Source of the DNA: a virus
Taxonomy: Duplodnaviria > Caudoviricetes
DNA length: 58,391 nucleotides
IMG/VR virus record: IMGVR_UViG_3300020580_000002
Span: 1-58,391 of that record
Strand: one strand, 5' to 3'
In this document: positions 3,561-44,806 of the stretch, piece after piece
How positions within the stretch are numbered: position 1 is the first letter of the stretch
Layout of the letters: each line of letters starts with the position of its first letter
The notes under the pieces: model-generated
The model's database searches: none
What the model was told of the DNA's origin: nothing
The model's input: the letters and a program-made list of their open reading frames with translations, nothing else
Translations under genes and position numbers: made by a program

Positions 3561-3889
3561 TCGCGAAATATGGCACCCGACCTCACGTGCTCCGCCAACT
3601 CAGCCAGCTCATCAGCAACGATGTTGCGAAAGATGCCCTTGACGTCTTTCTCTTGGAGCCACTCTAGGAAGGAGCGCCTGAAGGCATAGGCGAAGGTTGG
3701 CGTGCCTCCTGACTCGTTCCAGCCTAGTTTGAGGACCAGGACGACCTTCTCACCAGGGCTGTCGTTGAAGACGCGCTCGCGGCTGATGTTCTGTTCGGTC
3801 TTGGACCAAGGGCTGTCGTCTGCTGCGTTGATGGGCTTGGTCGGGCCAGGTATAGCATTAGGGGGCTCAGGTTCGTGTTTTGGTATCAT
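3557..3889 (-). CDS. Hypothetical protein
   Basis: Likely ATG at 3889 after GAGGA; convergent with 3255-3560. Confidence 0.6.
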   Translation of the reverse strand: MIPKHEPEPPNAIPGPTKPINAADDSPWSKTEQNISRERVFNDSPGEKVVLVLKLGWNESGGTPTFAYAFRRSFLEWLQEKDVKGIFRNIVADELAELAEHVRSGAIFRD

Positions 3890-4043
3890 GCTGTTATCCT
3901 CTGACCTAGTCGGTCTGTCCAAGCGGCCATTATGCCCCAAAGTATCATGCACAGGAAGCGCACAAAGCCGTTGTCGTTTGGCCACCATGACAGGAGTATG
4001 GCTATAGCTATTGTCGAATACAGCCAGCGCAGGTAACGGGCCT

Positions 4044-4421
4044 TCATGCATCCTCCCTTTCAATCTCGTCAACAGCGTTCCATTCGGCTTCGGTAGGCAC
4101 TGGTGGGAGAGCACCATAGCAGCGATGTATCAAAAACGCCGCACAGGGCGCCAGCGCCACGATCACCAGCCAGTTGAGTACGAAGTCTAGCCAGGTGACC
4201 GATGTCGCTGCCACGGGCTTGCCAGCCAGCAATACCACCACTGCTGCGAGCCAGTGGGACACGCACCAGGGGCACTTGCTGAGGTCCCAAGCGAACTCAC
4301 CCCCATGCCTATGGAACCACCACCTCACCTCACGAAACATGCGTGACCTGGCTAGCGTCATGCTCAATGAGCCTACCGCTATAGACTCCATCAACAGCTT
4401 ACCTATCTCTGTCATCACCAT
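4044..4421 (-). CDS. DUF1360-like membrane protein with CPWC motif
   Basis: Hydrophobic helices flanking LSKCPWCVSHW; similar to 41993-42322. Confidence 0.65.
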   Translation of the reverse strand: MVMTEIGKLLMESIAVGSLSMTLARSRMFREVRWWFHRHGGEFAWDLSKCPWCVSHWLAAVVVLLAGKPVAATSVTWLDFVLNWLVIVALAPCAAFLIHRCYGALPPVPTEAEWNAVDEIEREDA

Positions 4422-4521
4422 CCCCCTTTGGCCTGAACACCTCTCGCCACCTGCGTACCATGCCTCTGAGCACCAAGACTAGTACCAGTACCATGCCAGC
4501 CCACTTCAGCAACAGCAACAT
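4399..4521 (-). CDS. Possible 40-aa single-pass membrane peptide (absent from the ORF track)
   Basis: MLLLLKWAGMVLVLVLVLRGMVRRWREVFRPKGDGDDRDR fills the gap between neighbours. Confidence 0.4.
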   Translation of the reverse strand: MLLLLKWAGMVLVLVLVLRGMVRRWREVFRPKGDGDDRDR

Positions 4522-4733
4522 GGCGGCCTGCGCTTTTTGCGTACCCGGTCTGCTTCCTGAGCCGCCTTGAGCGCATCGTCCATGACCTTCTTGCGCTTCA
4601 AAGCGTCAGCAGCATCCTTCAGCGCTCGCTGCATAGCATCAGTACTGCCTACGTCAACAGGTACTGGTACTTGCTCGTCGGTACCAGTACTGCCCGTTCC
4701 AACCGGTCGTTTGCGCTGCAACTGTTCGCTCAT
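4506..4733 (-). CDS. Small Pup-like disordered/helical protein ending CCCC
   Basis: MSEQLQRKRPVGTGSTG.. N-terminus followed by a predicted helix; similar N-terminus to 4730-4975. Confidence 0.7.
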   Translation of the reverse strand: MSEQLQRKRPVGTGSTGTDEQVPVPVDVGSTDAMQRALKDAADALKRKKVMDDALKAAQEADRVRKKRRPPCCCC

Positions 4734-4975
4734 CTTGCCCCCTTTCGCGTACCATCCCTAAGCGTTATCGGGTCTTCATGGCCATCGCATCCATCGTGTA
4801 CACACGCATGGCACCAACAGCCACTAGAGCATGGGCCAAACTTCTGCTCCAACGCCGCTTCAATCGCACTGTTGAGTGCTGTCGTGGGTGGCACCTCAAC
4901 GGTCCTAAACTCCGCTTCAGTACTAGTACCATCCACACCACCACTGCCCGGCCTGCGCTTGCGCTGTTGGCTCAT
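4730..4975 (-). CDS. Small Pup-like protein with Cys/His-rich tail
   Basis: MSQQRKRRPGSGG..TTALNSAIEAALEQ then CSSGCWCHACVHDGC. Confidence 0.7.
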   Translation of the reverse strand: MSQQRKRRPGSGGVDGTSTEAEFRTVEVPPTTALNSAIEAALEQKFGPCSSGCWCHACVHDGCDGHEDPITLRDGTRKGAR

Positions 4976-4979
4976 GTGC

Positions 4980-5204
4980 TCACTCCCCCCTGTTGCTCAT
5001 AGCTGTATCAATGGCTGCGTACATACGGTCCCAGCCGATGTCCTGAAGGGCAATCTTGACCACTACGGACTCGCTGAACATTGGTACCCTGCTATCGTGA
5101 CCGATAGCTGTGCGTTCAGGTATAACTACCTTGCCTGCTACCAAGTCTCGAAAGTCTTTCTCACTTAGCGAAATGCGAACTTCGGTCAGCTTGTCTGTGG
5201 CCAT
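4980..5204 (-). CDS. Hypothetical protein
   Basis: ATG at 5204 after AGGAGG, directly behind the ATPase stop. Confidence 0.65.
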   Translation of the reverse strand: MATDKLTEVRISLSEKDFRDLVAGKVVIPERTAIGHDSRVPMFSESVVVKIALQDIGWDRMYAAIDTAMSNRGE

Positions 5205-5205
5205 A

Positions 5206-6621
5206 TCAGCCTCCTTGCACCGCTCCCTGAATCTTCGCAACACCCTCGACCTTGACCCCATGCCGCTCAGCGTAATCCTCAATCTCCAACCGGTGGCTCA
5301 AGCGCAGGTGCTCTAAGTAAACACCCTCGAACGCAGCATCAATGTCACCCTCACAAAGCGCACCACTCTTATGCCCACCAGCTACGCACCTATGAATAGC
5401 CTTAGCACTAGCCTGCTCCACTAGGCCAGCTATCATGGCACCACTTACTGTATGGTACATGTGAAAGGTAACTGTACCTTTACTGGTACGTAACTGATAC
5501 AAAGGGTACGCATCACTAAACAGTTTCGATGCTGCGTACCCCGGCATGTTGTCACCGCTCACTGGTATGTCACGCAGGTGTATAGCAAAGATGCGAATGG
5601 TCGCATTCAGGTCCGGTGGCGCGACATACACCTTACGGTCAATCCTGCCCGGCCTGGTGACTGCGCTGTCAAGCATGTCGGCCCTGTTGGTGGCCAGTAG
5701 CACAATCGCACCACTCTCTTCCAGACCATCCATCTCACTGAGAAACTGAGGCACAATGGTGTGCTCCATGCCTGACGCGGTACGACTCCCACGTGCAGTC
5801 AACAGCGCATCAGCCTCGTCAATGAAAATAACAGCAGGCCACCCATGCTGCGCCTGGTGCTTGCGAGCCTGCTCAAACAGCCCCCTGATCATCGACTCGG
5901 TCTCACCCACCCACTTTGACAGCAGCTCCGGCCCTTTGATGTAGATGAACGCGCCCGGCACAGTGCGCTTGCCATGGGCAGCAGCAATAGCGCTCACCGT
6001 TGCCTTACCGAGCAGCGTCTTACCATTGCCAGGCAACCCATGCAGCAGCACTCCACGGGCGTGGCGCTTGCCAAAGTGTTTGTAAAGAGCAGCATGCGTA
6101 TAAGGCATCTCCACACTTTCACGCAGCGCCAGCTTGGCATCCTCCAACCCGCCAACATCGTCCCACGTGACGTGCGTATCAGTCGTGAACGCAAACTTGG
6201 GCGGCTTCGTCAGCTTAAGCATGATGACCGTTGACGAGCCATCCATTACCACCTCATCTCCAACCTCAACCGGCACTCGCGTGCTGGCCACCGTCACCGT
6301 ACCCTGCTCCACAGCCACCTGCCAAAAGTCCTTTTCAACCTTGACAACAGTCCCGGTCATCCCATAGGTATCAAACGGCAGAGTACCCACCACCATCCCA
6401 GTAGGTGCCACCTGCACACAATCACCCACCTTCAACGCCTTGCTAGGCATGGGCACCACCGACCCATTACTCAACAACACCTGCTTGCCCTTGACGCTCG
6501 TAACACTAGCCACCTTCGCCGGTATCGCCGTTAGTTCCTCTAACAGCGCCTGCTGCTCGGCAATCTTAGCCTGCGCTTGACGCAGCAACACTTCCATGTT
6601 GTTATCCAACTGAGCCATCAT
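5206..6621 (-). CDS. ARC/Mpa-like proteasomal AAA+ ATPase
   Basis: N-terminal coiled coil and two OB-like beta regions; TWDDVGGL; Walker A GLPGNGKT; IKGPELLSKWVGETE; Walker B IFIDEAD; IVPQFLSEMDG; RPGRIDRK; SGAMI. Confidence 0.9.
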   Translation of the reverse strand: MMAQLDNNMEVLLRQAQAKIAEQQALLEELTAIPAKVASVTSVKGKQVLLSNGSVVPMPSKALKVGDCVQVAPTGMVVGTLPFDTYGMTGTVVKVEKDFWQVAVEQGTVTVASTRVPVEVGDEVVMDGSSTVIMLKLTKPPKFAFTTDTHVTWDDVGGLEDAKLALRESVEMPYTHAALYKHFGKRHARGVLLHGLPGNGKTLLGKATVSAIAAAHGKRTVPGAFIYIKGPELLSKWVGETESMIRGLFEQARKHQAQHGWPAVIFIDEADALLTARGSRTASGMEHTIVPQFLSEMDGLEESGAIVLLATNRADMLDSAVTRPGRIDRKVYVAPPDLNATIRIFAIHLRDIPVSGDNMPGYAASKLFSDAYPLYQLRTSKGTVTFHMYHTVSGAMIAGLVEQASAKAIHRCVAGGHKSGALCEGDIDAAFEGVYLEHLRLSHRLEIEDYAERHGVKVEGVAKIQGAVQGG

Positions 6622-6857
6622 CGCCCCCCTTTCGAATCATCCTTGCAGCCAATATCATCGTCGCTGACGTGCACAGTGATAGGCGCGCTGCTCTCAATCA
6701 AAAACGTCACGCGCTTGCCGCCACGATAGGCAGCAGCCCAAAACACACCCGTGTCCATGCGCTCTAATCTGAACAGGTCAGCCGTGACCGCCACATCATC
6801 CACCTGGCCAGCAGCATCCAAGCGCACAGCACTCCACACCTTATCGGCCATGCTCAC
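6618..6857 (-). CDS. Hypothetical protein
   Basis: Coupled to the ATPase start. Confidence 0.6.
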   Translation of the reverse strand: MSMADKVWSAVRLDAAGQVDDVAVTADLFRLERMDTGVFWAAAYRGGKRVTFLIESSAPITVHVSDDDIGCKDDSKGGR

Positions 6858-6888
6858 CCCCAGTTTTGATAGATTTACTACAGGTTAA

Positions 6889-7146
6889 CTAATGCTGTGT
6901 AACTTCTCGGACGCGCGTGCCAAGAATCCACACTGGCACCTTTGGCGTATCCATCCATTCGACGCAATATACGAACCGCGCCGGATAACTCTCACTCAGC
7001 GGCCCCATGCTGCCGATGACAGTGCCCAGTGCGCCATCCCGGTGGGCATCACCGTTGGCGGTGCCAGTTTTCTCAACCGTTGCGCCATTTTTTATCGCAC
7101 CGTCAGCCTGACCACGAAACTCAAACGCTCTCCATTGACCACTCAT
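6889..7146 (-). CDS. Hypothetical SH3-like small protein
   Basis: ATGA coupling; GTVIG..YCVEW pattern. Confidence 0.6.
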   Translation of the reverse strand: MSGQWRAFEFRGQADGAIKNGATVEKTGTANGDAHRDGALGTVIGSMGPLSESYPARFVYCVEWMDTPKVPVWILGTRVREVTQH

Positions 7147-7376
7147 TGTTTCTCCAGCACTGCTTTCACAGCAGCCTCCTCAGCATCTTCCTTCTCAAAA
7201 TCTGTCCACAAAAAGTGGCAAGCAGGACAGTCATACACTGGCGCATAGTACTCAGTCGTACCTGCCTCACCATGTCTGCCCCTGACAGGCGCTTGGAACT
7301 TTTCAATTCTCATCACCGTGTCCCAGTTGCCGCAGTTCGGACATTCCTTGCTCACTCTGCCACCCCCAAGCGCCAA
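7143..7376 (-). CDS. Zn-ribbon protein (true start probably GTG near 7355)
   Basis: CPNC and CPAC pairs. Confidence 0.65.
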   Translation of the reverse strand: MALGGGRVSKECPNCGNWDTVMRIEKFQAPVRGRHGEAGTTEYYAPVYDCPACHFLWTDFEKEDAEEAAVKAVLEKQ

Positions 7377-8053
7377 GCAGGCACAATGTTCTGCTCCAGC
7401 TTGCCCTTGTCACCATCAAGCCCCTTGCGCTGATCGTTACATTCACCCCACTCGATGCGTTCACCCATACGAATGCCCTTTTCACCATCATCAGTGCTCA
7501 CCAGCTTGCCCTCTGGATGGCGCTTGTAGAGCATGATCACGCCAACAGCCGTCGCATCAGGATAGATACAGTTAATGGTGAGCGCCTCTTGACGGTCAGG
7601 ATGCTCACTAGGTCTGCCCGCCTGGCGCTGCCACTCCTCAGACTGCTCCTTCGTCAAATCCTTTGGCGTCACCAAACACCACCCATCCGTCACTAACACC
7701 ATAGCAGCAGCTTGATGCTTGGCACAAAACTCACTCAACCCCCGACCAATCTCCCGCTTAGCCCTTGGCCCATTCCAGCCTTCAGGTATCAGGGCCACCA
7801 GCACATGCGGCCCTTGATTCAAAGGCGCATACACCATAGCCATGGGCATGAAGTCTGCGCCCTTCGCTGCTGTCTCGACCAACATGCTGCGCGCCAACTC
7901 CACAGCCTCATCAAACATGGCCTCCACACTCTCGGTCTGCGGCTTCTGGTGCTCATCAGCAGGCACAGGCGCATGTACGAACTCAACCGGCCCATAAGTT
8001 TCGTTTTTGCCCCTTGCTGACCACTTTTTGAGCACGTCGTCAAGGTCGCTCAT
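7352..8053 (-). CDS. Hypothetical protein
   Basis: 233-aa ORF coupled on both sides. Confidence 0.75.
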   Translation of the reverse strand: MSDLDDVLKKWSARGKNETYGPVEFVHAPVPADEHQKPQTESVEAMFDEAVELARSMLVETAAKGADFMPMAMVYAPLNQGPHVLVALIPEGWNGPRAKREIGRGLSEFCAKHQAAAMVLVTDGWCLVTPKDLTKEQSEEWQRQAGRPSEHPDRQEALTINCIYPDATAVGVIMLYKRHPEGKLVSTDDGEKGIRMGERIEWGECNDQRKGLDGDKGKLEQNIVPAWRLGVAE

Positions 8054-8337
8054 GCTGCACCCCCTTTCACCACACCACAGCGCTTGACATGCCTCACCAG
8101 CGAGCGCCTGTCTATAAATCCAAACTCACCACACTTGGCACACTTGCGCTCATCGCGACGGGCCTTCAGCCGCTTGCGCCTACGCTCCCCACGTGCTGCC
8201 TTAAGCATCTCACTGTGCCCAATGATGCCTGCGAAGCTGCCCCACCGCGACTTGGCAGCCTTACGACCACCGCGTCCATGTTTTCTAGTACCGCCTCTAC
8301 CTGGCATTGCCCACCACCTTTGCCTGTTCGTCATCAC
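8050..8337 (-). CDS. Basic protein with C2HC-like Zn finger
   Basis: R/K-rich; CAKC..H...C. Confidence 0.55.
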   Translation of the reverse strand: MMTNRQRWWAMPGRGGTRKHGRGGRKAAKSRWGSFAGIIGHSEMLKAARGERRRKRLKARRDERKCAKCGEFGFIDRRSLVRHVKRCGVVKGGAA

Positions 8338-8488
8338 GGAACGCTTTAGTCTCAGTCAGCAACCACTCAGTGCGTTCCCATGCGCTGATCAACTTCATCT
8401 CACGCAGGTCAAGCTGCATCTGGTGCAGCTCACTCAGCAGCCTGTTAAACCTAGCTGTGCGAATGTCTTTGTCAGTCATCACATTCAT
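8297..8488 (-). CDS. Hypothetical protein
   Basis: Packed in the leftward gene run. Confidence 0.5.
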   Translation of the reverse strand: MNVMTDKDIRTARFNRLLSELHQMQLDLREMKLISAWERTEWLLTETKAFRDDEQAKVVGNAR

Positions 8489-8712
8489 GCTGCCACCACC
8501 TTTCGTGCACGGTGCATACCTAACTTATTCCCACACCACCACGGCGTAATGCGATTGCCTTCCACATCGTCAAGGCTCACCATCAGACCAGAGCCATGCG
8601 CATAGCCACAAAAGCAACACTGGCTGTCGCGCAACTCGCCAGTGAACACCTGCCCATGGCGCTTAGCCCCTGGTGCACACATCTCACATACCGAATGTGC
8701 TTCACTGTCCAT
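8485..8712 (-). CDS. Small Cys-containing protein
   Basis: CEMC and CCFC motifs; AGGAG SD. Confidence 0.55.
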   Translation of the reverse strand: MDSEAHSVCEMCAPGAKRHGQVFTGELRDSQCCFCGYAHGSGLMVSLDDVEGNRITPWWCGNKLGMHRARKVVAA

Positions 8713-8720
8713 GTCTGCTC

Positions 8721-10151
8721 CTACTTGAACTGAGCTGCGTAGTGCGTGCTTTTCAGGTACGCATCAATGTTGTGGTACTGCGTAATCCCGACCATTTTGC
8801 ATATGAGCAGACACTCCAGGTTCAGCGTAGGATGATTCTGCTCACCACCCATGCTCGCACCCGTCACCTCCCCATCACTAATCCACACCCTTGGCCTGGC
8901 TTGACGCGCCAGCCACCTGAGCGCAGGCCCATCCACCACATTGGCACCAGGAAACGTAGGCCAGGAGCGCTCAGCAGCATGCCGACCTTCCTTGGCGAGC
9001 ACGGTCAAATGCCCCATGCTCAAGCCCCTGCTGTCATGCTCACCACCACCTGAGTAGACAGCAATGGTTGCCAACGGGCTCCTGCGTAGCAACTCCACCA
9101 ACTGAGCCTCACTGATGCTCATGCTGCCACTCTTGTCGAGCAACACCGTCCCACCAAGGCCGGGCAACTTCGCATGCCACGCCCTGCCGTCCATCGCCGG
9201 AATGAGCGCTCGATGCGGATAGCGAAAGGCACCAATGAAACAAGGGCGATGTCTAAACGAATGCCTGATGGCGCGCTTGGTCATTGACAGTGCACGCTTG
9301 CGCATCTGGCCCCACGGCGGTATATCCATGCCCGACTGGCGCTCACTCTCACTCTTCAACCGTTCGAGCTGCTCACCAGCCGTCTCCATGTCTTTGGTCC
9401 ACGCCAGGGAGCGCATGAAGTCACGTTTCCACTCGCTAGACAGGTGCCTCATGCTATTGAGCCAATTCATCATGTCTCTGCTATTCTCTTTGCGCTTCCC
9501 CTCAGGCACATCACCAGCTCCTGACCGTGGCATGATGGCGCCCTCATCCACAGCGCGCTTGAGGTCAAAGGCATCCTGCACCACCTCTGCCCAGTGTGCG
9601 AGCTGAACAGCATCAAACTGACCAGCAGCAGCACCAGTCGCAGCCTTGGCACCAATCGCTTGTGCCCCCTGCGCTGCTTTCGCTGCTGCAATATTTATCT
9701 CCTTGCTAGCCCTTTGAACCCATGGTGGCAAGTTGTTGGCCAACGATGCCCCAAACGAGCCAATGTACGTCTTAGCCAGATACTCAACCCCATGACTAGC
9801 ATCAGCCACTACTGGTAGCGCCTTCAGCTCAACGCCCCTCGCAGCAGCAAACCCATTCACCGCCGCCATGAACACCGCCTCAACGATGTCCCTTTCAACA
9901 TGCGCCTCACGACACAGGCGCGCATATTCAGCCACCGCTGCTTCTTGCGAATGGCGCAATTGCAGGTTAGCGTACTGCTGAAACCTCAACGCCTCACTAG
10001 CCTCATCATCACCCATGGGGGCAGTGAACGAGCCACCACCCCCATAGCCCACCACCACCCGCGCTGTTGGTGCATTGCTGACGCCCCACGGTCCAGTGCC
10101 ATGCACTGCACTCGGCAGGGCACCCTTCTGATCATCACCTCGCTTAGCCAT
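8721..10151 (-). CDS. VWA-domain protein (MoxR partner)
   Basis: MIDAS LLDKSGSM and WISDG; adjacent to the MoxR ATPase. Confidence 0.8.
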   Translation of the reverse strand: MAKRGDDQKGALPSAVHGTGPWGVSNAPTARVVVGYGGGGSFTAPMGDDEASEALRFQQYANLQLRHSQEAAVAEYARLCREAHVERDIVEAVFMAAVNGFAAARGVELKALPVVADASHGVEYLAKTYIGSFGASLANNLPPWVQRASKEINIAAAKAAQGAQAIGAKAATGAAAGQFDAVQLAHWAEVVQDAFDLKRAVDEGAIMPRSGAGDVPEGKRKENSRDMMNWLNSMRHLSSEWKRDFMRSLAWTKDMETAGEQLERLKSESERQSGMDIPPWGQMRKRALSMTKRAIRHSFRHRPCFIGAFRYPHRALIPAMDGRAWHAKLPGLGGTVLLDKSGSMSISEAQLVELLRRSPLATIAVYSGGGEHDSRGLSMGHLTVLAKEGRHAAERSWPTFPGANVVDGPALRWLARQARPRVWISDGEVTGASMGGEQNHPTLNLECLLICKMVGITQYHNIDAYLKSTHYAAQFK

Positions 10152-10870
10152 CAGGCACCAACCTTCGCCGCAACAGGAGCACCACTCAACTTCAAGGCAG
10201 CCACCACATCTCTGCCCTTGGCGCCAAACGCGACTTTCGCTGCCTCATCACTGTCAACACCAGCCAGCGCCAACCTAGCAAACGTCAGTGCAGCGCGGGG
10301 ACTAATGGCCTTGCTCTCCTGCGCATACGACTTCTTCACCATGGTGCCCAACCCATTCACTTGTGCATTCAGGTGAGCAATGAGCGCAGGATGGGGCACA
10401 CTCACCACAATCACGCACTCAAACCGGTCTGCCAGCGCCGGGTCTAATTCGTCAACACCACTGTTGCTAGTGGCGATGACGGTGAACGTAGCCTTAGGCT
10501 GTACCACTTCGCCAGTAGGCAGAACAATCTGACATACGTCAGGGCTGTCGAGCACCCCCAACATGGCATCCTTGACCGAGCTGCTGGCACGTCCTAGCTC
10601 GTTGACCACAACCAAGCTGCCCTCTCTCAGCGCCGTCGTCAAAGGCCCATCGTGCCACACAAACTCACCACCCTTGGGCACAAAGTGTCCTAGCAACTCC
10701 TGCAACACCACATCCTCAGACAGGGTAATGCTAATCACCTGCTGCTGCTTAGACTTCAGGGCATGCTGCGCCGCATAGGTCTTACCCACCCCCGGCGGAC
10801 CCACCACAAAGATGCGATTCAAATGCCGCACTGCCACTTCCAGTAACTTCCAGTTCGCTTCAGACATCAT
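10151..10870 (-). CDS. MoxR/CbbQ-NorQ family AAA+ ATPase
   Basis: GPPGVGKT, WHDGPL, VVNELGRA, IATSN, LDPALADRF; ATG at 10870 after AAGGGGG. Confidence 0.85.
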   Translation of the reverse strand: MMSEANWKLLEVAVRHLNRIFVVGPPGVGKTYAAQHALKSKQQQVISITLSEDVVLQELLGHFVPKGGEFVWHDGPLTTALREGSLVVVNELGRASSSVKDAMLGVLDSPDVCQIVLPTGEVVQPKATFTVIATSNSGVDELDPALADRFECVIVVSVPHPALIAHLNAQVNGLGTMVKKSYAQESKAISPRAALTFARLALAGVDSDEAAKVAFGAKGRDVVAALKLSGAPVAAKVGA

Positions 10871-11013
10871 CGTCCCCCTTGCGCACCACCTAACACCATG
10901 ATGCTCCCTGCTACTGCTATGGCGGGGGATAGCCATTCTCACCTGTCTGGTGCTTGTCCAGCCAGGCTCCATAGCAGCAGCAGGCAGCACCATCGCGCTG
11001 CCCATTTCAGTGA

Positions 11014-38178: not shown

Positions 38179-41100
38179 ATGGCCCAGTACACCTTAATCA
38201 CCGGCACCGTAAGGGACCCTACTGGGCGTATTTACCAGAACGGTACCTTCAGCGCTACCTTTCACGACCCCGGCACCAGCGGCAAGCTAGCTTCCCTATC
38301 CAACGGCCAGCCCTTCGAGCAAACCATCACCGGTACGCTCGACAGCTTCGGCTTCTTTAGCGTGCTCGTGGCCGACAATGGGCAAATCGCATCAGCCTCC
38401 GGCGCCACCGGCACCAGTTGGAATTTCGAGTTTGCCGCCAATGCTAGCATCCTGCAACTCACTGGTATCCAACCCATCCCCAGTTTCAGCTACTCAACAC
38501 CTATCATTTGCGCAACAAACACCCCTGTCGTATGCGGCGTTAGCATGGACATCAGCACCCCCATACAGGCAGTGTCCGCGCTTTTGCCCCCCGTAAGTGG
38601 CAGTGGGGGCCCAACGCTATTCGCCGGTGTGCCTACTGGCCCATGCGCCGCAACACAAACCGCCGTCAACACCCTCACCGGCGATTTTTACTCTTGTGTG
38701 TCTGGCGCATGGTTTAAGGTTGGTCCTGGAGGCGTTCCACTGTCAGCAGCACTGAAGCCAACCCTGCCAGGCGACCCGGTACAGTTTGTGTCTCCAAACG
38801 GCAATGACACAAACGACGGCTTGTCGTGGGGCAGTGCCAAGCTGACAGTCTACAAAGCACTGCAATCACTCCCTGGCGGTTCCAGTACACAAGTCGGCTC
38901 AGGTACCGTCCTTCTGAGCGGCGTCGTAAGCTACGGCGGCCCAGCAGCCAGCCAAGGCATGTGGATTATGGGAGGGTTAGACCCAAACTCGGGCAGTCCT
39001 CCCTCAGGCTGGCTACTTAAGAGCACGTCCGGCCCTATCAACATTGAATGCGCCTTCCCTCCCATCCAGTTCGCCCATGCACACACTCCTGCCTGCACCA
39101 TGACAGGCGGAGGCAACACTGACTTAGTGCACCCTGCAATTTGGCTCTCCGCAACTAACACCATCAACATAAAAAACGTCGGGCTCAGCAATTTTCTGAA
39201 CACTTACGTCAAAATCGGCATCGACTCCAATAACAACCGGAGTACTGCTGCTGGAGGCAGTTCCAGCATTTCGCTGGACGGATTGAGCTGGAACCACGGA
39301 AGTTGCCGATTTGGCGGCGGTCCCGGTCTGGACATCGGCTCTAACACCTTTTGGATTTGGATGCGCAACATTAACGGCAGCGGCTGCAGCTTTGGCGAGC
39401 TAACCATTGCTGGTTCTGGTACCCCTGGCCTCAGCCGCTCCGCAAACGTCGTCACTGTCAACACGACCGCACCAGTCAGCATCACTGCAGGTCCAACTCA
39501 GTGGATTACCGTACAAAACGCCAGCGACCCTAGCTTTAACGGCTCCTTCGCCGTCACTGCGGTCAATTCGAGCCAGCAATTCACTTACGCCCAGGTAGGC
39601 CCCAACGCAACGAGTGGCAACGGGCAGGTAGTCACTGCCGCCAAAGCCGCTATCAACCACGACGCTGGCGGTGGCTCCGGCTCAGGCTTAGTTTTTCTGG
39701 ACAATTTCCAACTAAACAGTGGAGGTATCCGCATCGTCCCCGGCAATCAGGGCGCTGGAATGTACATTCGCAACGGCGATTACGAAGGAGACGGTGCCAA
39801 CCCCGACATGCCGATGGTCCTGGTAACCAGCCAAGTAGCTACTTCAGCGGGTACTGGCATGAACGTTGTCGTCGAGAACTTGGAAATTTCGGACCCCCTC
39901 GTGAGCATCCCCGGCGTGCAAATAGACAACGGTGGAATACCCATCATCAAGGTATCCCGTGTGGACAAAGGTGTGTCAGGGCCTGCGCTGGTCTTGGGTG
40001 GCACACCTTCTGACTTTGTGATTAGCGATTTGCGCCAACTGCACCCAGGCTACAACGTTTTCGGCCGCGTCGTAGGTGGCGGCATCGACGTAGCTAGAAG
40101 GGGCTTCTCTCCTGTTGCAGTGACGTTCCCTAACTTAGCGTCAGCAGCACCTAGTGCTTGGACCTTCGAGACTGGAGCAGGTACCATCACCTCGGGCATA
40201 GCTGCTCCTGACGGCACCACTGGAGCAGGCCGCATCACCTCGAACGCGGGGACAGCCTCGGTGGACGTGTTTAGCAGCTTAGGCACAACGCTGACTGTTG
40301 GCGACGCTTACATCTACGGCGCATGGGAACGCTCAAACTCTGGCGGCGTGCTCAGTGGTGGTGGCGTCAAGCTGGCGCTAAACTCTAACGGCCAGGGTGT
40401 CGGAGATACTTGCGTTGGGGGTGCCCAATCAGGCACCACTCTATTCAGCCAGTTGTTCGGCGACGGCCAGTGGATATGGAACTCAGGTCTGTGCAAAATC
40501 GCCACTAACCCTAACACTGCTGGCCTGACGTTGAGCGTCCCTGTCACCAACCCCAACGTCATGGACGTGTACGCACCAGTTCTAATCAAAGTGCCTGCTG
40601 GCACCAAGTCTGACAATGAGCTTTACGAGATTGCGCTTAACCTTTCCAGTTACTCTGCCACCGCCGTGGCAGGCGATGTCTCCATGCTTGGCGGGCAGTA
40701 TTTCCGTCCTGGATGGAGCACTTTTACGAACCTTGGGGCGGTGCGCAACGGTACAACTATCTACTGCACCGACTGTGTGGACAATAGCCCATGCGCAGGT
40801 GGTGGCACTGGAGCGTTCGCACAAGGGCTAAATGGCGTATGGGTATGCAACGGTGCTGGAAGCAACATACCTTTCAGCGTCGTCACCACTGGGACAAACA
40901 CGAACGCTCTGGTTGTCGGTACTGGCGGCTCGCTGAATGCAAGCGGCTCGGGCATCGTCAATGCCACCATCGTGACCTCTGCGACTGCGAGCCCGGCGTT
41001 GTCTGGGGTAGTGCGTCTAGCGTCTGGCGACCAACTATGCTGGCGCAACAATGCAAACAGCGGTGACGATTGTATCCTCAAGACCGCTACGGATGCTCTA

Positions 41101-41778
41101 CAGCTAAGTTCGTTCTTTCCTGTGATCGCTGGACAGTTCGCCTCAGCTACAACCCCGCGCGCTGCGGCTGGATTCATCAGCCTGGCGACTAATGATGCCA
41201 TCGCCTGGAGAAACACTGGCAACACGGGGGATATTTTCATCACTCTTAACGGGGTTAACAATTTCGACTTCAGCACCGCCCTGCTCGGGGCGCCAGGCTT
41301 CTATAGCAACGCCGCTACGGTCTCGGTGACGGGGGTCGTGAGGCTAGGCACTAACCAGACGGTGAGCTGGCGCAACAATGGCAACACTGCAGACCTTGGG
41401 CTCACGCTAAACTCGTCCAACGTTTTCACCTTTGCCGCGCCAATCCAACCGCCAGCCTACCTAACTAGTACCAACTGCTCCTCTGGCGCTTCGCCAGCAG
41501 TGTGCGGCTCTGCTGCGGCGGGCAGTGTAGCAGTGCCTACCGGCACGAACGCTACCTTGACAGTGAACACCACCGCAGTGACGGCAAACAGCCAGATTTT
41601 CGTACAGCAAGATGATACGCTGGGAGCGAGACTGAGCGTTACTTGCAACAGCACATTGTCGTCGTTAATCGTCGAGCCAGTCGTCACGGCGCGTTCCGCC
41701 GGAACTAGCTTTACTGTGACGATCAGCGGCACGACAGTGACTAACCCAGTGTGCTTAAGTTACTTTATAGTTAACTAG
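38179..41778 (+). CDS. Tail fibre/spike 1 (beta-helix-like, 20 Cys)
   Basis: 1199 aa, G/S/T/N-rich; FVSPNGNDTNDGLSW motif; three WRN repeats. Confidence 0.8.
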   Translation: MAQYTLITGTVRDPTGRIYQNGTFSATFHDPGTSGKLASLSNGQPFEQTITGTLDSFGFFSVLVADNGQIASASGATGTSWNFEFAANASILQLTGIQPIPSFSYSTPIICATNTPVVCGVSMDISTPIQAVSALLPPVSGSGGPTLFAGVPTGPCAATQTAVNTLTGDFYSCVSGAWFKVGPGGVPLSAALKPTLPGDPVQFVSPNGNDTNDGLSWGSAKLTVYKALQSLPGGSSTQVGSGTVLLSGVVSYGGPAASQGMWIMGGLDPNSGSPPSGWLLKSTSGPINIECAFPPIQFAHAHTPACTMTGGGNTDLVHPAIWLSATNTINIKNVGLSNFLNTYVKIGIDSNNNRSTAAGGSSSISLDGLSWNHGSCRFGGGPGLDIGSNTFWIWMRNINGSGCSFGELTIAGSGTPGLSRSANVVTVNTTAPVSITAGPTQWITVQNASDPSFNGSFAVTAVNSSQQFTYAQVGPNATSGNGQVVTAAKAAINHDAGGGSGSGLVFLDNFQLNSGGIRIVPGNQGAGMYIRNGDYEGDGANPDMPMVLVTSQVATSAGTGMNVVVENLEISDPLVSIPGVQIDNGGIPIIKVSRVDKGVSGPALVLGGTPSDFVISDLRQLHPGYNVFGRVVGGGIDVARRGFSPVAVTFPNLASAAPSAWTFETGAGTITSGIAAPDGTTGAGRITSNAGTASVDVFSSLGTTLTVGDAYIYGAWERSNSGGVLSGGGVKLALNSNGQGVGDTCVGGAQSGTTLFSQLFGDGQWIWNSGLCKIATNPNTAGLTLSVPVTNPNVMDVYAPVLIKVPAGTKSDNELYEIALNLSSYSATAVAGDVSMLGGQYFRPGWSTFTNLGAVRNGTTIYCTDCVDNSPCAGGGTGAFAQGLNGVWVCNGAGSNIPFSVVTTGTNTNALVVGTGGSLNASGSGIVNATIVTSATASPALSGVVRLASGDQLCWRNNANSGDDCILKTATDALQLSSFFPVIAGQFASATTPRAAAGFISLATNDAIAWRNTGNTGDIFITLNGVNNFDFSTALLGAPGFYSNAATVSVTGVVRLGTNQTVSWRNNGNTADLGLTLNSSNVFTFAAPIQPPAYLTSTNCSSGASPAVCGSAAAGSVAVPTGTNATLTVNTTAVTANSQIFVQQDDTLGARLSVTCNSTLSSLIVEPVVTARSAGTSFTVTISGTTVTNPVCLSYFIVN

Positions 41779-41790
41779 GGAGGACCAGCA

Positions 41791-42078
41791 ATGGCCGACA
41801 TACGCATGTACGTGCAAAAAGGGTGCCCGCATTGTGAGGCGGCACAGCAGTTTTTGATAGGCCGTAACATGACCGTGGAGGTCATTGAGATTGGCTTCGA
41901 CCCGATTTTACAGGCAGGCATCAGGTCTAGCTCGAACGGGCAGGGCCTGCCGGTGCCCATCATCATCTCGTTCGCAACTCAGGAGGTCGTCGTTGGAAAC
42001 GACACCGCCACACTTCAGCGTTTGGCAGATGCTGCTTTTGTCCATCGCCCAGTCGCATCTCACGCTGCTGCTTCGTGA
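41791..42078 (+). CDS. Glutaredoxin/thioredoxin-fold protein with CPHC active site
   Basis: MYVQKGCPHCEAA..LPVP..VVVG; GGAGG SD; no signal peptide. Confidence 0.88.
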   Translation: MADIRMYVQKGCPHCEAAQQFLIGRNMTVEVIEIGFDPILQAGIRSSSNGQGLPVPIIISFATQEVVVGNDTATLQRLADAAFVHRPVASHAAAS

Positions 42079-42322
42079 GGGAAGGGCGTTCGACTGGCTG
42101 TTTCGCGGTCGCCTACTGAAGGAGATGCGCGAATGCCCCATGTGTTTAGGGGCTTGGACAGCGTTAGGTGTCTCATTGGCAGCAGGTCTACGCAACCCGT
42201 GGCAGATTCTTGTAGTCGCAGGGGTTGGGCATGTGCTATACCTGTTTCGAGATAAGTACCTGCCCTGCGATAAATGCACCATCCCGCCAGCGGTGCCGTT
42301 CAAGTTTATAAACAGGAGTTGA
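41993..42322 (+). CDS. DUF1360-like membrane protein with CPMC and CDKC motifs
   Basis: TTG start 5 nt after AGGAGGT (alternative ATG at 42029); hydrophobic helices; ECPMCLGAW. Confidence 0.7.
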   Translation: METTPPHFSVWQMLLLSIAQSHLTLLLREGRAFDWLFRGRLLKEMRECPMCLGAWTALGVSLAAGLRNPWQILVVAGVGHVLYLFRDKYLPCDKCTIPPAVPFKFINRS

Positions 42323-42325
42323 CCA

Positions 42326-44806
42326 ATGGCTGGCTCGACAACGAACGTCACCGGGACAGCAACTGATTCCCAGACTACGCCATATATCAATGGCACCTGG
42401 GTAGCGAACCTCTTCAACCCGACCTCTTTCCAACCGGTGTGGGGTGGCACTACAAATTTCACAACCACCTATGGCGGGGCGCTCGACAACACCGGCTCGT
42501 TCGCTGCTACCCTGCCATCAAACACCGGCGCCAACTCTATCACCGTCGGCGGGTTGACCACTACGCAGTGGACTTTTGCGTTTTTTACCTCTGACGGCGA
42601 GAATGCCTTCACCGCAACGGTCACCATCACCGGCGCTAACCAGAGCATCAGCGCATCCATCATCAACGCGGCACGCATCTTTTGGGAAACCGGTGACACA
42701 AACCCTCCACCTTGCGGCACCGGCCAAGGAATCGTATCGCTAGGGACGGGAACTTTCGGATGCGGAGGCGGTTCGTTCCCGGTCACCACGATTGTAAACG
42801 TCAGCTCAGGCGGCGGAATCCAGCCTACCGGTACCGGGTTCGTCAATATTGTTCCTGTTAATACGCCTATAACACAGTCACAGGTTGGGCCGGGATTCAA
42901 TGTTAAGAACTATGGAGCGAAGGGCGATACGCAGTTTAGTGCTGCAAACTGCACGCTCAACGGTACGGCAACGCTCGTTTGCCCAGGAGCCAACTTCAAT
43001 TCTGCAAAGGATGTCGGTAAGCGGGTCAATTGCGGGTCTGGCCTAGGCGGGGGCCTCCAAGTAGCGGCAGGTACGACTATAGCGTCGGTTACGAACTCTA
43101 CAACTGTAGTGATGTCAAACGTCAGCGGCCAAAACAATAACATCTTCTCGTGCGCATGGGGAACCGTAGACGATGTAGCTGTCAACGCGGCCGTCACTGC
43201 ATGGCTAGCAGCAGCTTCTAGCACCTCAGGACAGCGCGGCCCATTCAACAACAACAATAATCCGCAATCTCCAGTCTTGTACTTTCCCGCTGGAGCCTAC
43301 ATGCTCTGCGGTTCAGGAAACTCCATAATCAACTTCGCATCAAGCAAGTTTGGCGCTGTCGTTACAGGAGATGCGCCACAGGAATCATGGCTTGTCCCCT
43401 GCGACATCCCAAACATGGGCGGGAATGATTTCTTTGTACAGCAGAGCGGGACAAACGGTCTGGTCATCAGGAACCTATCTATTGACGGTATGTTCTTTCC
43501 CGAGGGCGGCGCGAATGCCTTCAACCTGGGGGGCGACCATCGTACAGAGAACGTAACTGTCACGCGCTGGAACGGGGCCAACGGCTTCCTAAGTGCAGGT
43601 GGCGGTGGGTATAACCTGAACATGAATATAAATAACTCCATCGGGGGCATTTTCTGCAGCGGTTGCAACGACGAGTTCCATGCTGGAGGCTCATCGAACA
43701 ATGGGACGGGCGGCGGTGCCTTCAACTTGAAGGTGCAAAATGTCGTCGGCGAAAACACCGGTACCGGTGCTCGCTTTACAGGTAACTTCCTCATCGACGA
43801 ATGTGGCGCATCAACGAACGGCTGTACGCAAATCCTTAACTCGCAGGATGTGTGGTTTCAAGGAGCGTCGCTGTTCTCGACACCCAGCTCCAACGCTCTT
43901 TACGTTGATGGTACTTCCTTCGTTCATATGTCCGGGGGTATCGCGGGGTGTTTTGGCACCGATGCACCATGTACGGGAGTAAACATTCTGGCCGGTGGGG
44001 TCGTGCAGTCCTCAGATGTAAGGTACGTTGGTTCCGGCACAACTGGGAAGTGCATCAACAACGCCGGTATCTTTAATGATAACGGTGGCAACTCTTGTGA
44101 GACACAATTCACAGTCAACAGCGGTACATCGACAGGAACGGCTGCAGTTCTAACAGTGAACGCTGGCCCCGGTGCCCCAAACACGCTTTGTACTGTGGGC
44201 GATGCTTTAATTGTTGAGGGAGTTTCACCTGCAGGCTACAACGGTTACTACCCGGCAGGCGCAACCAGTGGCGTTACAGCAGTTTCCGGCACGACAATTA
44301 GCTATACAACTGCCGGGAGCAACCTCGGAGCAGCAGGCGCCGGTGGCATTGTGACCTGCCGTAACCTGCAAACTTACGCAGGTACGCTACCAAAGGCTTT
44401 GCTCAATAACCCCATCCCGAATACCTGCTATCTCACCATCACTCCCATTGTAAACGCCACAACCTATCAGATGTGTAACTGGGGAGCTGGCAGTCCCACG
44501 AACATTTCGCGCATCACGGCTAGTTCACAAAACGTAACTACCTGTGCCACAGCGCCAATCATCACCATCTCCAACGGAACGGTTTCGCAAACGCTGACGC
44601 TCACCAGCGGCAAGCAGTTCTGGGACAGTTTCGCTGCCCAAGACGCGAGCACCGGTGTAGGTACAACGATATTCAAGCCAAGCATCTCGCTCACCGGCAC
44701 AGACAGAATCACGATCAAGTACGACGCTGGTGCGCTATCGGCTTGTGCCACACCGCCAACCCTGTTGGCAGTCAGTTACACCATTTCGCCCATCTTGAGC
44801 AACTGA
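42326..44806 (+). CDS. Tail fibre/spike 2 (pectate-lyase-like beta helix, 22 Cys)
   Basis: FNVKNYGAKGD and VLYFPAGAY motifs; N-terminus resembles fibre 1 (VTGTATD / ITGTVRD). Confidence 0.82.
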   Translation: MAGSTTNVTGTATDSQTTPYINGTWVANLFNPTSFQPVWGGTTNFTTTYGGALDNTGSFAATLPSNTGANSITVGGLTTTQWTFAFFTSDGENAFTATVTITGANQSISASIINAARIFWETGDTNPPPCGTGQGIVSLGTGTFGCGGGSFPVTTIVNVSSGGGIQPTGTGFVNIVPVNTPITQSQVGPGFNVKNYGAKGDTQFSAANCTLNGTATLVCPGANFNSAKDVGKRVNCGSGLGGGLQVAAGTTIASVTNSTTVVMSNVSGQNNNIFSCAWGTVDDVAVNAAVTAWLAAASSTSGQRGPFNNNNNPQSPVLYFPAGAYMLCGSGNSIINFASSKFGAVVTGDAPQESWLVPCDIPNMGGNDFFVQQSGTNGLVIRNLSIDGMFFPEGGANAFNLGGDHRTENVTVTRWNGANGFLSAGGGGYNLNMNINNSIGGIFCSGCNDEFHAGGSSNNGTGGGAFNLKVQNVVGENTGTGARFTGNFLIDECGASTNGCTQILNSQDVWFQGASLFSTPSSNALYVDGTSFVHMSGGIAGCFGTDAPCTGVNILAGGVVQSSDVRYVGSGTTGKCINNAGIFNDNGGNSCETQFTVNSGTSTGTAAVLTVNAGPGAPNTLCTVGDALIVEGVSPAGYNGYYPAGATSGVTAVSGTTISYTTAGSNLGAAGAGGIVTCRNLQTYAGTLPKALLNNPIPNTCYLTITPIVNATTYQMCNWGAGSPTNISRITASSQNVTTCATAPIITISNGTVSQTLTLTSGKQFWDSFAAQDASTGVGTTIFKPSISLTGTDRITIKYDAGALSACATPPTLLAVSYTISPILSN

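Follow-up and report, generated by a model that had tools for sequence, protein, structure and literature searches.

What use does a phage have for an unfoldase of the proteasomal type when it carries neither a proteasome nor the enzymes that mark proteins for one? The question arises from the IMG/VR virus record IMGVR_UViG_3300020580_000002 (Caudoviricetes), which we refer to as the window: a complete virus genome with direct terminal repeats that makes up the whole record of 58,391 bases (58.4 kb) and in which genes for a terminase, a portal, a major head protein, a DNA polymerase and a helicase/primase-like protein were identified. A long leftward operon of small genes in this genome includes a cassette on the minus strand. 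It encodes an ARC/Mpa-like AAA+ ATPase of 471 amino acids (aa) (positions 5206..6621), two small cysteine-tailed proteins, here called open reading frame (ORF) A (81 aa, 4730..4975) and ORF B (75 aa, 4506..4733), and a membrane protein of the DUF1360 type (125 aa, 4044..4421). A first-pass annotation of the sequence had placed the ATPase and the two small ORFs, with their motifs, where we find them; the conserved membrane protein just downstream had been passed over. The answer that we favor, giving it as a whole a little less than an even chance, is that the unfoldase works independently of any proteasome, with the small proteins as Pup-like partners that need no ligase and are probably linked to the membrane protein via their cysteines. 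The narrower claim, that these proteins and the ATPase are physical partners in any way, is one towards which we lean.

The translation of the ATPase includes IKGPELLSKWVGETE, TIVPQFLSEMDG and VSGAMIAG and ends in ...AVQGG. Like Mpa and ARC, the protein has a classical AAA module, with the Walker A motif GLPGNGKT, the Walker B motif IFIDEAD and an aromatic-hydrophobic-Gly pore loop (KWVG), all of which are conserved in our alignment A1. Pfam recognizes the AAA domain only (PF00004, E 2e-32), and the CDC48 and PAN models of NCBIfam cover the same part only. The model TIGR03689 ('proteasome ATPase') was matched from end to end: residues 10-465 of the ATPase fall on profile positions 21-509 of 512 (E 1.7e-79). 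In a search of PDB sequences, two-domain Cdc48/VAT chains scored highest through the sum of two stretches, and Mpa (5kwa) matched residues 148-362 (E 8e-49). An AlphaFold2 model (11-row alignment, mean predicted local distance difference test score (pLDDT) of 75.7) predicts a helix at residues 2-31 and beta strands at residues 36-137, followed by the AAA module. The predicted strands are OB-like, so that the model reproduces the N-terminal helix and OB region of Mpa/ARC. Comparison of the model with PDB structures by Foldseek gave, among the matches listed, M. tuberculosis Mpa at all of ranks 1-29 (E 6e-27 to 2e-22, 24-27% identity, 468-496 columns, TM 0.32-0.51), with Rpt subunits next. The invariant or near-invariant residues of the N-terminal region, A16, I20, Q23, L27 and L30, are spaced three to four apart, and by our own reading helix 2-31 may thus follow a coiled-coil heptad pattern. 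In its architecture the ATPase resembles Mpa/ARC, as the first-pass annotation had maintained when it described an ARC/Mpa-type motor lacking the tail for 20S docking.

Three features of Mpa/ARC are missing. The first is the curated score: despite the end-to-end match, the 267.9 bits obtained with TIGR03689 lie below the equivalog cut-off of 504.75. The second is the C-terminus. A motif with a penultimate Tyr at the C-terminus of Mpa mediates docking to the 20S core, according to PMC8755798. The phage ATPase ends in VQGG instead of a motif of this GQYL/HbYX type. None of the 21 ATPases in the viral clade described below has the penultimate Tyr (0/21), and the cellular ATPase of locus L092 ends in GHYL. 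Because the docking tail is absent, the expected work of the ATPase is the unfolding, extraction or remodelling of proteins and not their delivery to a protease. The third missing feature is the pupylation gene neighborhood. Profiles for Pup (PF05639), PafA/Dop (PF03136) and the 20S core (PF00227) matched nowhere in the complete genome, while control genomes responded as expected; the earlier statement that no PafA, Dop or 20S subunit is encoded is therefore correct. The company of pup, dop/pafA and prcBA, a hallmark of Mpa/ARC, is thus absent from the phage genome. The gene after ARC was a PF03136 Pup ligase/deamidase in all four cellular ARC loci tested.

Where does this ATPase stand among its relatives? 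These were numerous (6708 at E<=0.001 among 8000 scored), but only a few were close (76, 74, 67, 54 and 52% identity). A scan for related loci with the single ATPase sequence returned none, whereas a scan with alignment A1 succeeded. In a first quick IQ-TREE, which covered 35 ATPases of the loci retrieved and had a Cdc48-like archaeal root, the viral loci and three contigs from metagenome-assembled genomes (MAGs) formed one clade of 21 rows (Shimodaira-Hasegawa-like approximate likelihood ratio test (SH-aLRT) 91). This clade was sister to another (support 90) with ARC/Mpa proteins of Bifidobacterium, of a Nitrospirota-labelled source and of Chloroflexota, together with Fimbriimonadaceae and DPANN archaeal proteins. 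A second tree, to which 12 viral loci were added, separated 33 viral from 13 cellular rows (SH-aLRT 100) and placed the phage ATPase outside the cellular ARC/Mpa clade. Both trees were quick and sample the loci returned by our pattern scans rather than the family; on that sample, the phylogeny that had been suggested as a check makes the viral clade a sister of cellular ARC/Mpa.

Similar motors in deposited genomes were more distant. A tblastn search with the ATPase against 50,697 deposited phage genomes found 67 records, none covering at least 80% of the query, and blastn of positions 4000-9000 against phage records gave no match. The best tblastn records were the Brevundimonas phages Polewnik and Strzyga, whose proteins are annotated 'proteasome-associated ATPase'; only the AAA part is in common, and there is no cassette. 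The protein of Brevundimonas phage vB_BpoS-Polewnik (ON529863.1; L209:2557-3978) is 33% identical over residues 155-450 of the ATPase, the AAA part. It has a basic N-terminal region with a Cys motif of its own, CGDPNCMEC, and neither a Cys-tailed small ORF nor a DUF1360 gene comes after it. Another relative, P0007 (807 aa; 58% identity over 56% of the query), contains ~330 extra residues directly after the GNGK of Walker A, and the ATPase sequence picks up again after ...HN. By eye, this insertion looks like an intein in the P-loop. On three DPANN archaeal contigs (L085:6461-6910, L086:6365-6922 and L087:4734-5165), an ARC-like ATPase is followed by a protein of 143-185 aa with a Lys-rich N-terminus and a conserved LPIVAS...GLAGKDDA; two of these proteins were tested and had no Pfam match.

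If a protease is not its partner, with what might the phage ATPase work? The candidates are the small proteins encoded next to it. ORF A starts MSQQRKRRPGSGG, carries the motif CWCHACVHDGCDGH and ends ...RKGAR. It consists of a basic N-terminus, an acidic linker, a helix and then CxCxxC...CxGH, which we call the knuckle type. ORF B starts MSEQLQRKRPVGTG and ends RRPPCCCC; a basic N-terminus is followed by a helix, a polybasic stretch and PPCCCC at the very end (the terminal Cys-pair type). In the structural model of ORF B, residues 1-30 are without secondary structure (pLDDT 55-61), residues 31-68 form a helix (pLDDT 84-96) and RPPCCCC makes a short tail. The predicted protein thus has the disordered N-terminus and the central helix of about 30 residues that are typical of Pup. 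No Pfam, PHROG or NCBIfam family was found at E<=0.1 for ORF A (P0123 in our protein profile search), ORF B or the small ORFs generally, and ORF A and ORF B gave 0 families in the NCBIfam scan at that threshold.

The first-pass annotation had put the small ORFs immediately after the ATPase gene, but a 74-aa ORF starting MATDKL (4980..5204, minus strand) intervenes. An AGGAGG ribosome-binding site lies within the last codons of the ATPase gene, 6 nucleotides (nt) before the ATG of this ORF. The ATG of ORF A is preceded by the ribosome-binding site GGGGGAG, the start of ORF B overlaps the stop of ORF A (ATGA), and AAGGGGGA precedes the DUF1360 gene at 4044-4421. Judged by these signals, the small ORFs are real, translationally coupled genes of one operon. 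No Pfam family was found for the 74-aa ORF itself, nor a PHROG or NCBIfam family for an overlapping 100-aa reading (4980-5282). In L002, the nearest relative, nothing comparable occurs at the corresponding position, and it is uncertain whether the 74-aa ORF is part of the module.

To what extent is the arrangement conserved? A scan of IMG/VR with the alignment of ATPase relatives returned 18 viral loci with near-full-length matches (L002-L019). One of them (L013) ends right after the ATPase gene, which leaves 17 assessable loci. A Cys-tailed small ORF is found directly downstream of the ATPase, as one or two genes on the same strand, in 12 of the 17, and is present too on two MAG contigs of the same ATPase clade (L082 and L084). 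The small proteins of the 12 loci are 60-130 aa long. They begin with a basic N-terminus, typically M-x-Q-x-Q-K/R-K/R, which leads through a Gly/acidic linker into an amphipathic helix, often with P-x-[IV]-D-D at its start, and they finish in cysteines. Homologues of ORF A follow the ATPase in L002, L003, L016, L018, L008 and L011, and an alignment of 28 type-B members (alignment A6) contains two Cys columns near the C-terminus that are at least 90% conserved. Two types of tail recur. One is a terminal Cys pair (CCCC, CGCF, CGCW, CTCW, CGC and the like), frequently preceded by a polybasic stretch; the other is the longer knuckle, CxCxxC...C, often with a His. This genome carries one of each.

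As background, a basic N-terminus combined with a Cys pair among the 12 C-terminal residues occurred in 27 of the 4196 mechanically called small ORFs of the fetched loci. Rare in this background and recurring right after the ATPase in most loci, the pattern is by this count more than chance. When a profile of 20 small ORFs was run against 1.84 billion representative proteins of any length, 30 were found at E<=0.001. All were of 59-130 aa; among these 30 family members none ended in GGQ/GGE and none was fused to a larger protein.

The alignment of small ORFs has no stretch conserved enough for a scan, and for this reason the DUF1360 alignment was used for a second one. It yielded 49 viral loci. 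An ARC-like ATPase lies just upstream of DUF1360 in 17 of them, and in all 17 the interval contains a Cys-tailed small ORF: 13 were detected by a hidden Markov model (HMM) at E<=1, four of these loci having been in the HMM training set, and L173, L187, L205 and L206 were recognized by eye. In the remaining 32 loci, 7 of which have less than 1.8 kb of upstream sequence, no ATPase match was found in the fetched flank. HMM hits to small ORFs were likewise 0/32 in these loci, as were Cys-tailed small ORFs ending within 500 nt upstream. Because of these counts (17/17 against 0/32), we conclude that the small proteins track the ATPase and not DUF1360 as such. Small ORFs also stand beside an ATPase with no DUF1360 within 5 kb in L008, L011, L016 and L018. 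Conserved linkage of the small ORFs to the ATPase in related phages, on which the earlier proposal had been allowed to stand or fall, is therefore borne out by both samples (12/17, and 17/17 versus 0/32).

The next gene after the small ORFs, in this genome as in 8 of the 12 viral loci and in L082 and L084, encodes a membrane protein of ~100-140 aa with an invariant C-P-x-C. All 11 aligned members (alignment A3) match PF07098 at E<=1 (best 5.3e-8), and 11/11 also match phrog_781. The copy of this genome by itself gives E 0.13 and 12.8 bits against PF07098, where the cut-off is 21; it is by way of the aligned members that we provisionally place this third cassette gene in the DUF1360/phrog_781 family of small membrane proteins of phages and bacteria. 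The C-P-x-C of the phage protein occupies residues 50-53, between a Lys/Arg-rich loop and the second hydrophobic segment, which it directly precedes. From a rough tally of hydropathy and charge, most of the Lys/Arg (5-8 residues) fall in the loop ahead of CPxC, which by the positive-inside rule would be cytoplasmic. Tail type appears to go with this gene. Among the loci with both ATPase and DUF1360, 23/24 carry the terminal Cys-pair type, and the four knuckle-only loci have no DUF1360 within 5 kb. On the ATPase tree, 3/3 independent contrasts support the association, which we regard as a lead, not a result. For the Cys tails we take the DUF1360 CPxC protein to be the likeliest partner, which changes the mechanistic picture.

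Some further observations on these two kinds of gene are given here for completeness. In L168, an extra knuckle-type small ORF (4237-4614) comes after the DUF1360 gene, besides a terminal Cys-pair ORF (3822-4010) before it, so the order of the cassette parts is not fixed. The window contains a second DUF1360-like small ORF on the plus strand (41885-42322; E 2.3e-4 with the HMM of the cassette DUF1360 family). It has a CPMC motif before a hydrophobic segment and no Pfam match, and is flanked by two genes of very large size (38179-41778 and 42326-44806) that are probably structural. Interpretations of the Cys tails as precursors of ribosomally synthesized and post-translationally modified peptides, or as sites of lipidation, were dropped; no modifying enzyme is conserved alongside, and no test was aimed at it.

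How might the parts of the cassette act together? PMC8755798 describes that Mpa binds the Pup helix on its coiled coil, antiparallel, and that the disordered N-terminus of Pup threads the pore and is pulled. The Mpa/Pup system (TIGR03689; PF05639; PDB 5kwa, 5kzf, 7px9, 7pxc) has the same order of motor domains as the phage ATPase, whose best fold matches are Mpa, and its partner is likewise small, with the disordered N-terminus and one long helix that are predicted for ORF B. By analogy, the leftward operon would encode a proteasome-independent unfolding machine plus its own targeting pieces. The long helix of the small protein would dock on the N-terminal helices of the ATPase, and the basic, disordered N-terminus would point into the pore and get pulled. 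The C-terminal cysteines would hold the cargo in place of the isopeptide link of Pup. Those of ORF B would most likely join the CPxC of DUF1360 at the cytoplasmic face, through a shared metal site or a disulfide, and this contact could either tether the unfoldase to the membrane or hand over the DUF1360 protein or its complex. ORF A may carry a small zinc module that binds another target. With no protease as partner, the motor would either unfold, extract or remodel proteins at the membrane or be tethered to it.

The cysteine clasp, taken by itself, we consider doubtful. A precedent in kind is the intermolecular 'zinc clasp' that joins the tails of CD4 and CD8 with Lck. The likeness is one of analogy only, in that a CxC-type motif and a CxxC on two chains at the cytoplasmic membrane face could share one metal ion; the clasp is eukaryotic, its proteins are unrelated to those of the phage, and metal binding in the cassette is conjecture. 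The corresponding full proposal, to which we would give a similarly modest chance, is a minimal ligase-free counterpart of pupylation: a 'threader plus helix' would dock as Pup does, and cargo would be held by a cysteine-metal clasp with the CPxC protein or by the zinc module of the knuckle. If true, this minimal system would be a membrane-tethered extraction or unfolding machine for host takeover.

Not all results favor such a partnership, and several of them bear on other explanations as well. Complex prediction had been named in the first-pass annotation as a way to examine binding to the coiled coil. We used two copies of ATPase residues 1-150 together with ORF B, each with an alignment, and obtained a score of 0.35 (runs 0.36, 0.33 and 0.35), against 0.01 for the best of three controls. 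The mark applied is reached by 58/80 solved complexes and 2/110 mismatched pairs; those that reach it with scores <=0.60 are 7 of the 80 solved complexes and both of the passing mismatches. The runs share at least 50% of contacts, with a partner pLDDT of at least 63. Mpa-Pup is itself a solved complex, so the pass may reflect likeness to Mpa-Pup. The prediction was made with an N-domain dimer, not a hexamer, and returned no interface. It thus lends weak support to binding of ORF B to the ATPase N-domain, and a contact site on the coiled coil cannot be assigned from it.

Do the same genes perhaps form one operon with a different wiring? The Cys-tailed proteins could act alone or with DUF1360, as subunits or regulators that bind zinc or lie close to the membrane, without Pup-like docking on a coiled coil. 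They would then meet the ATPase, if at all, at another surface or as its substrates, for example as an inhibitory small protein that is removed to time a membrane event. The weak complex prediction without an interface agrees with this explanation, as does the fact that profile comparisons gave no homology to Pup (see below). DUF1360, a family of no known function, also seems to have a life of its own: 32/49 viral copies are without an ATPase or a Cys-tailed ORF in the fetched flank, and the second DUF1360-like ORF of this phage lies among structural genes. On the other hand, the small ORFs follow the ATPase (17/17 with it, 0/32 without), also in the four loci where DUF1360 is absent (L008, L011, L016 and L018), and a basic disordered N-terminus with a single helix is the layout that an ARC-type motor engages, as described in PMC8755798. 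We judge a different wiring to be rather unlikely, though worth keeping in mind.

Are the small proteins related to Pup by descent? PF05639 matched none of 18 small ORFs, even at E<=10, and a small-ORF profile found no Pup among PDB chains. The best PDB-chain hit, SRP19 (E 0.0098), was judged to be a chance match. An alignment of true Pups was prepared from actinobacterial genomes: three loci from genomes flagged unpublished were set aside beforehand, and of the 29 loci then examined, 20 gave an ORF and 16 were aligned, omitting near-duplicates (L132, L138) and loci with unsure starts (L137, L143). Comparison of the small-ORF family with these 16 Pups by hhalign gave a probability of 5.2% over 16 columns and a pairwise P-value of 0.0076. 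The family members ranked high with a Pup HMM among 4217 small ORFs (Mann-Whitney p 3e-10 and 9e-13), but the reversed Pup HMM placed them equally high (p 1e-7 and 4e-12) and gave one member 15.2 bits. Because the reversed-profile control was equal, we rejected the rank enrichment as evidence for homology and ascribe the likeness to Pup to composition and layout. GGQ/GGE ends all of the 16 true Pups aligned, and neither ORF A (...RKGAR) nor ORF B (...CCCC) has such a conjugatable C-terminus. Thus, of the resemblance to Pup that had been noted by eye, the layout stands, with the disordered basic N-terminus and long helix of ORF B, whereas sequence homology found no support in Pfam, in PDB, in hhalign or against the reversed profile. 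By these comparisons, homology to Pup is neither shown nor excluded.

The small proteins could nevertheless be true but very diverged Pups, which either lost the PafA-binding C-terminal part and GGQ/E or preserve an ancestral, unconjugated state, and which remained with a viral ARC branch. Their elements come in the same order as those of Pup, and hhalign sets the family helix (columns 31-46) on the Mpa-binding helix of Pup (columns 36-51), with the P-value given above. The best non-Pup scorer with the Pup HMM (14-16 bits) is a protein of L084 with the helix VQDVLDEIDALLAE, and the partner ATPases are a sister clade of cellular ARC/Mpa. The low hhalign probability, the lack of a Pfam hit and the equal performance of the reversed profile argue against such descent, and short, charged, low-complexity helices converge easily. 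We therefore regard diverged Pups as unlikely. As a claim on ancestry, it is compatible with the partnership that we favor.

Other difficulties of the partnership lie in the cassette itself. The N-terminal helix of the ATPase has ~30 residues and may be shorter than the coiled coil of Mpa. Five of the 17 loci (L007, L009, L010, L014 and L019) have no such small ORF, which means that the motor can work without a small protein. The HMM of the small ORFs was built from ORFs first picked by eye, so that the counts in the first sample are partly circular. L188 combines DUF1360 with a knuckle-type protein only, and the association between tail type and DUF1360, when corrected for kinship, cannot reach significance (3 pairs, sign test p 0.25). 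Cargo held through a metal or non-covalently might also come loose when an AAA motor pulls.

Could the small proteins be directed at a host machine instead? As decoys or inhibitors they would occupy the coiled coils of a host ATPase and so jam a Pup-proteasome or UBact system, as had been proposed in the first-pass annotation. In general, phages are known to inhibit host AAA+ proteases, and the Pup-like layout would suit this role. Yet the small proteins were found in no setting other than beside an ATPase of the phage itself, and neither the conserved Cys tail nor the membrane partner would be needed by a decoy. No pointer to a host was found: the genome had no tRNA genes, and its terminase had no relatives among 185,579 species genomes. 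The MAG contigs with the cassette were binned to Saccharibacteria and Gammaproteobacteria, which are not known for Pup, although such binning is unreliable. Decoys are thus highly improbable.

Another cellular parallel to the proposed ligase-free partnership may be the proteasome-less Pup-ARC loci of Bifidobacterium. There, as in the phage, an ARC-type motor occurs without a 20S core, and the ARCs of L091, L093, L094 and L096 lack the penultimate Tyr like the phage ATPase. These loci differ in keeping Pup and a PF03136 enzyme beside ARC, neither of which is present in the phage cassette. In Corynebacterium, Pup-ARC reportedly has a role in ferritin disassembly. Compared with Mpa/Pup, what remains in the phage cassette is the motor and a Pup-shaped partner, and the ligase, the deamidase, the proteasome, the GQYL-type tail and the conjugatable end are gone; with neither GGQ/E nor the PafA-binding part, the partner has cysteines at its end and is not conjugated. 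Homology of the small proteins to Pup was not detectable by sequence, the score of the ATPase is under the equivalog cut-off, its place is in a separate viral clade, and the cassette adds a membrane protein. Membrane proteins are linked to Pup/ligase genes in Plesiocystis and Rhodopirellula according to the available part of Iyer et al. 2008 (PMC2588565), which does not mention phages. No description of a phage ARC-type ATPase with Pup-like partners was found in the full-text literature searched, outside of which were subscription journals and supplements.

The only known setting for Pup-style recognition by ARC/Mpa motors is a bacterial pathway of enzymatic tagging. If the proposed contacts hold, this mode of recognition can also work with a gene-encoded, non-covalent adaptor, and phages employ unfoldases of the proteasome type for purposes of their own, probably at the membrane. 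An unconjugated adaptor of this kind could then be that from which Pup evolved. The DUF1360 family, so far without a function, gains a testable partner, and the cassette offers a very small targeting system of two or three parts that can be tested directly in vitro.

The surroundings of the cassette are otherwise uniform in composition, the G+C content being even across the genome (53-60%). The same leftward operon encodes a second AAA machine at 8721-11005 (minus strand). It comprises a MoxR/AAA_5-type ATPase (10151-11005; PF07728, E 6.2e-21) and, directly after it, a 476-aa protein (8721-10151, minus strand) that has no Pfam match and matches phrog_33218 (E 1e-20).

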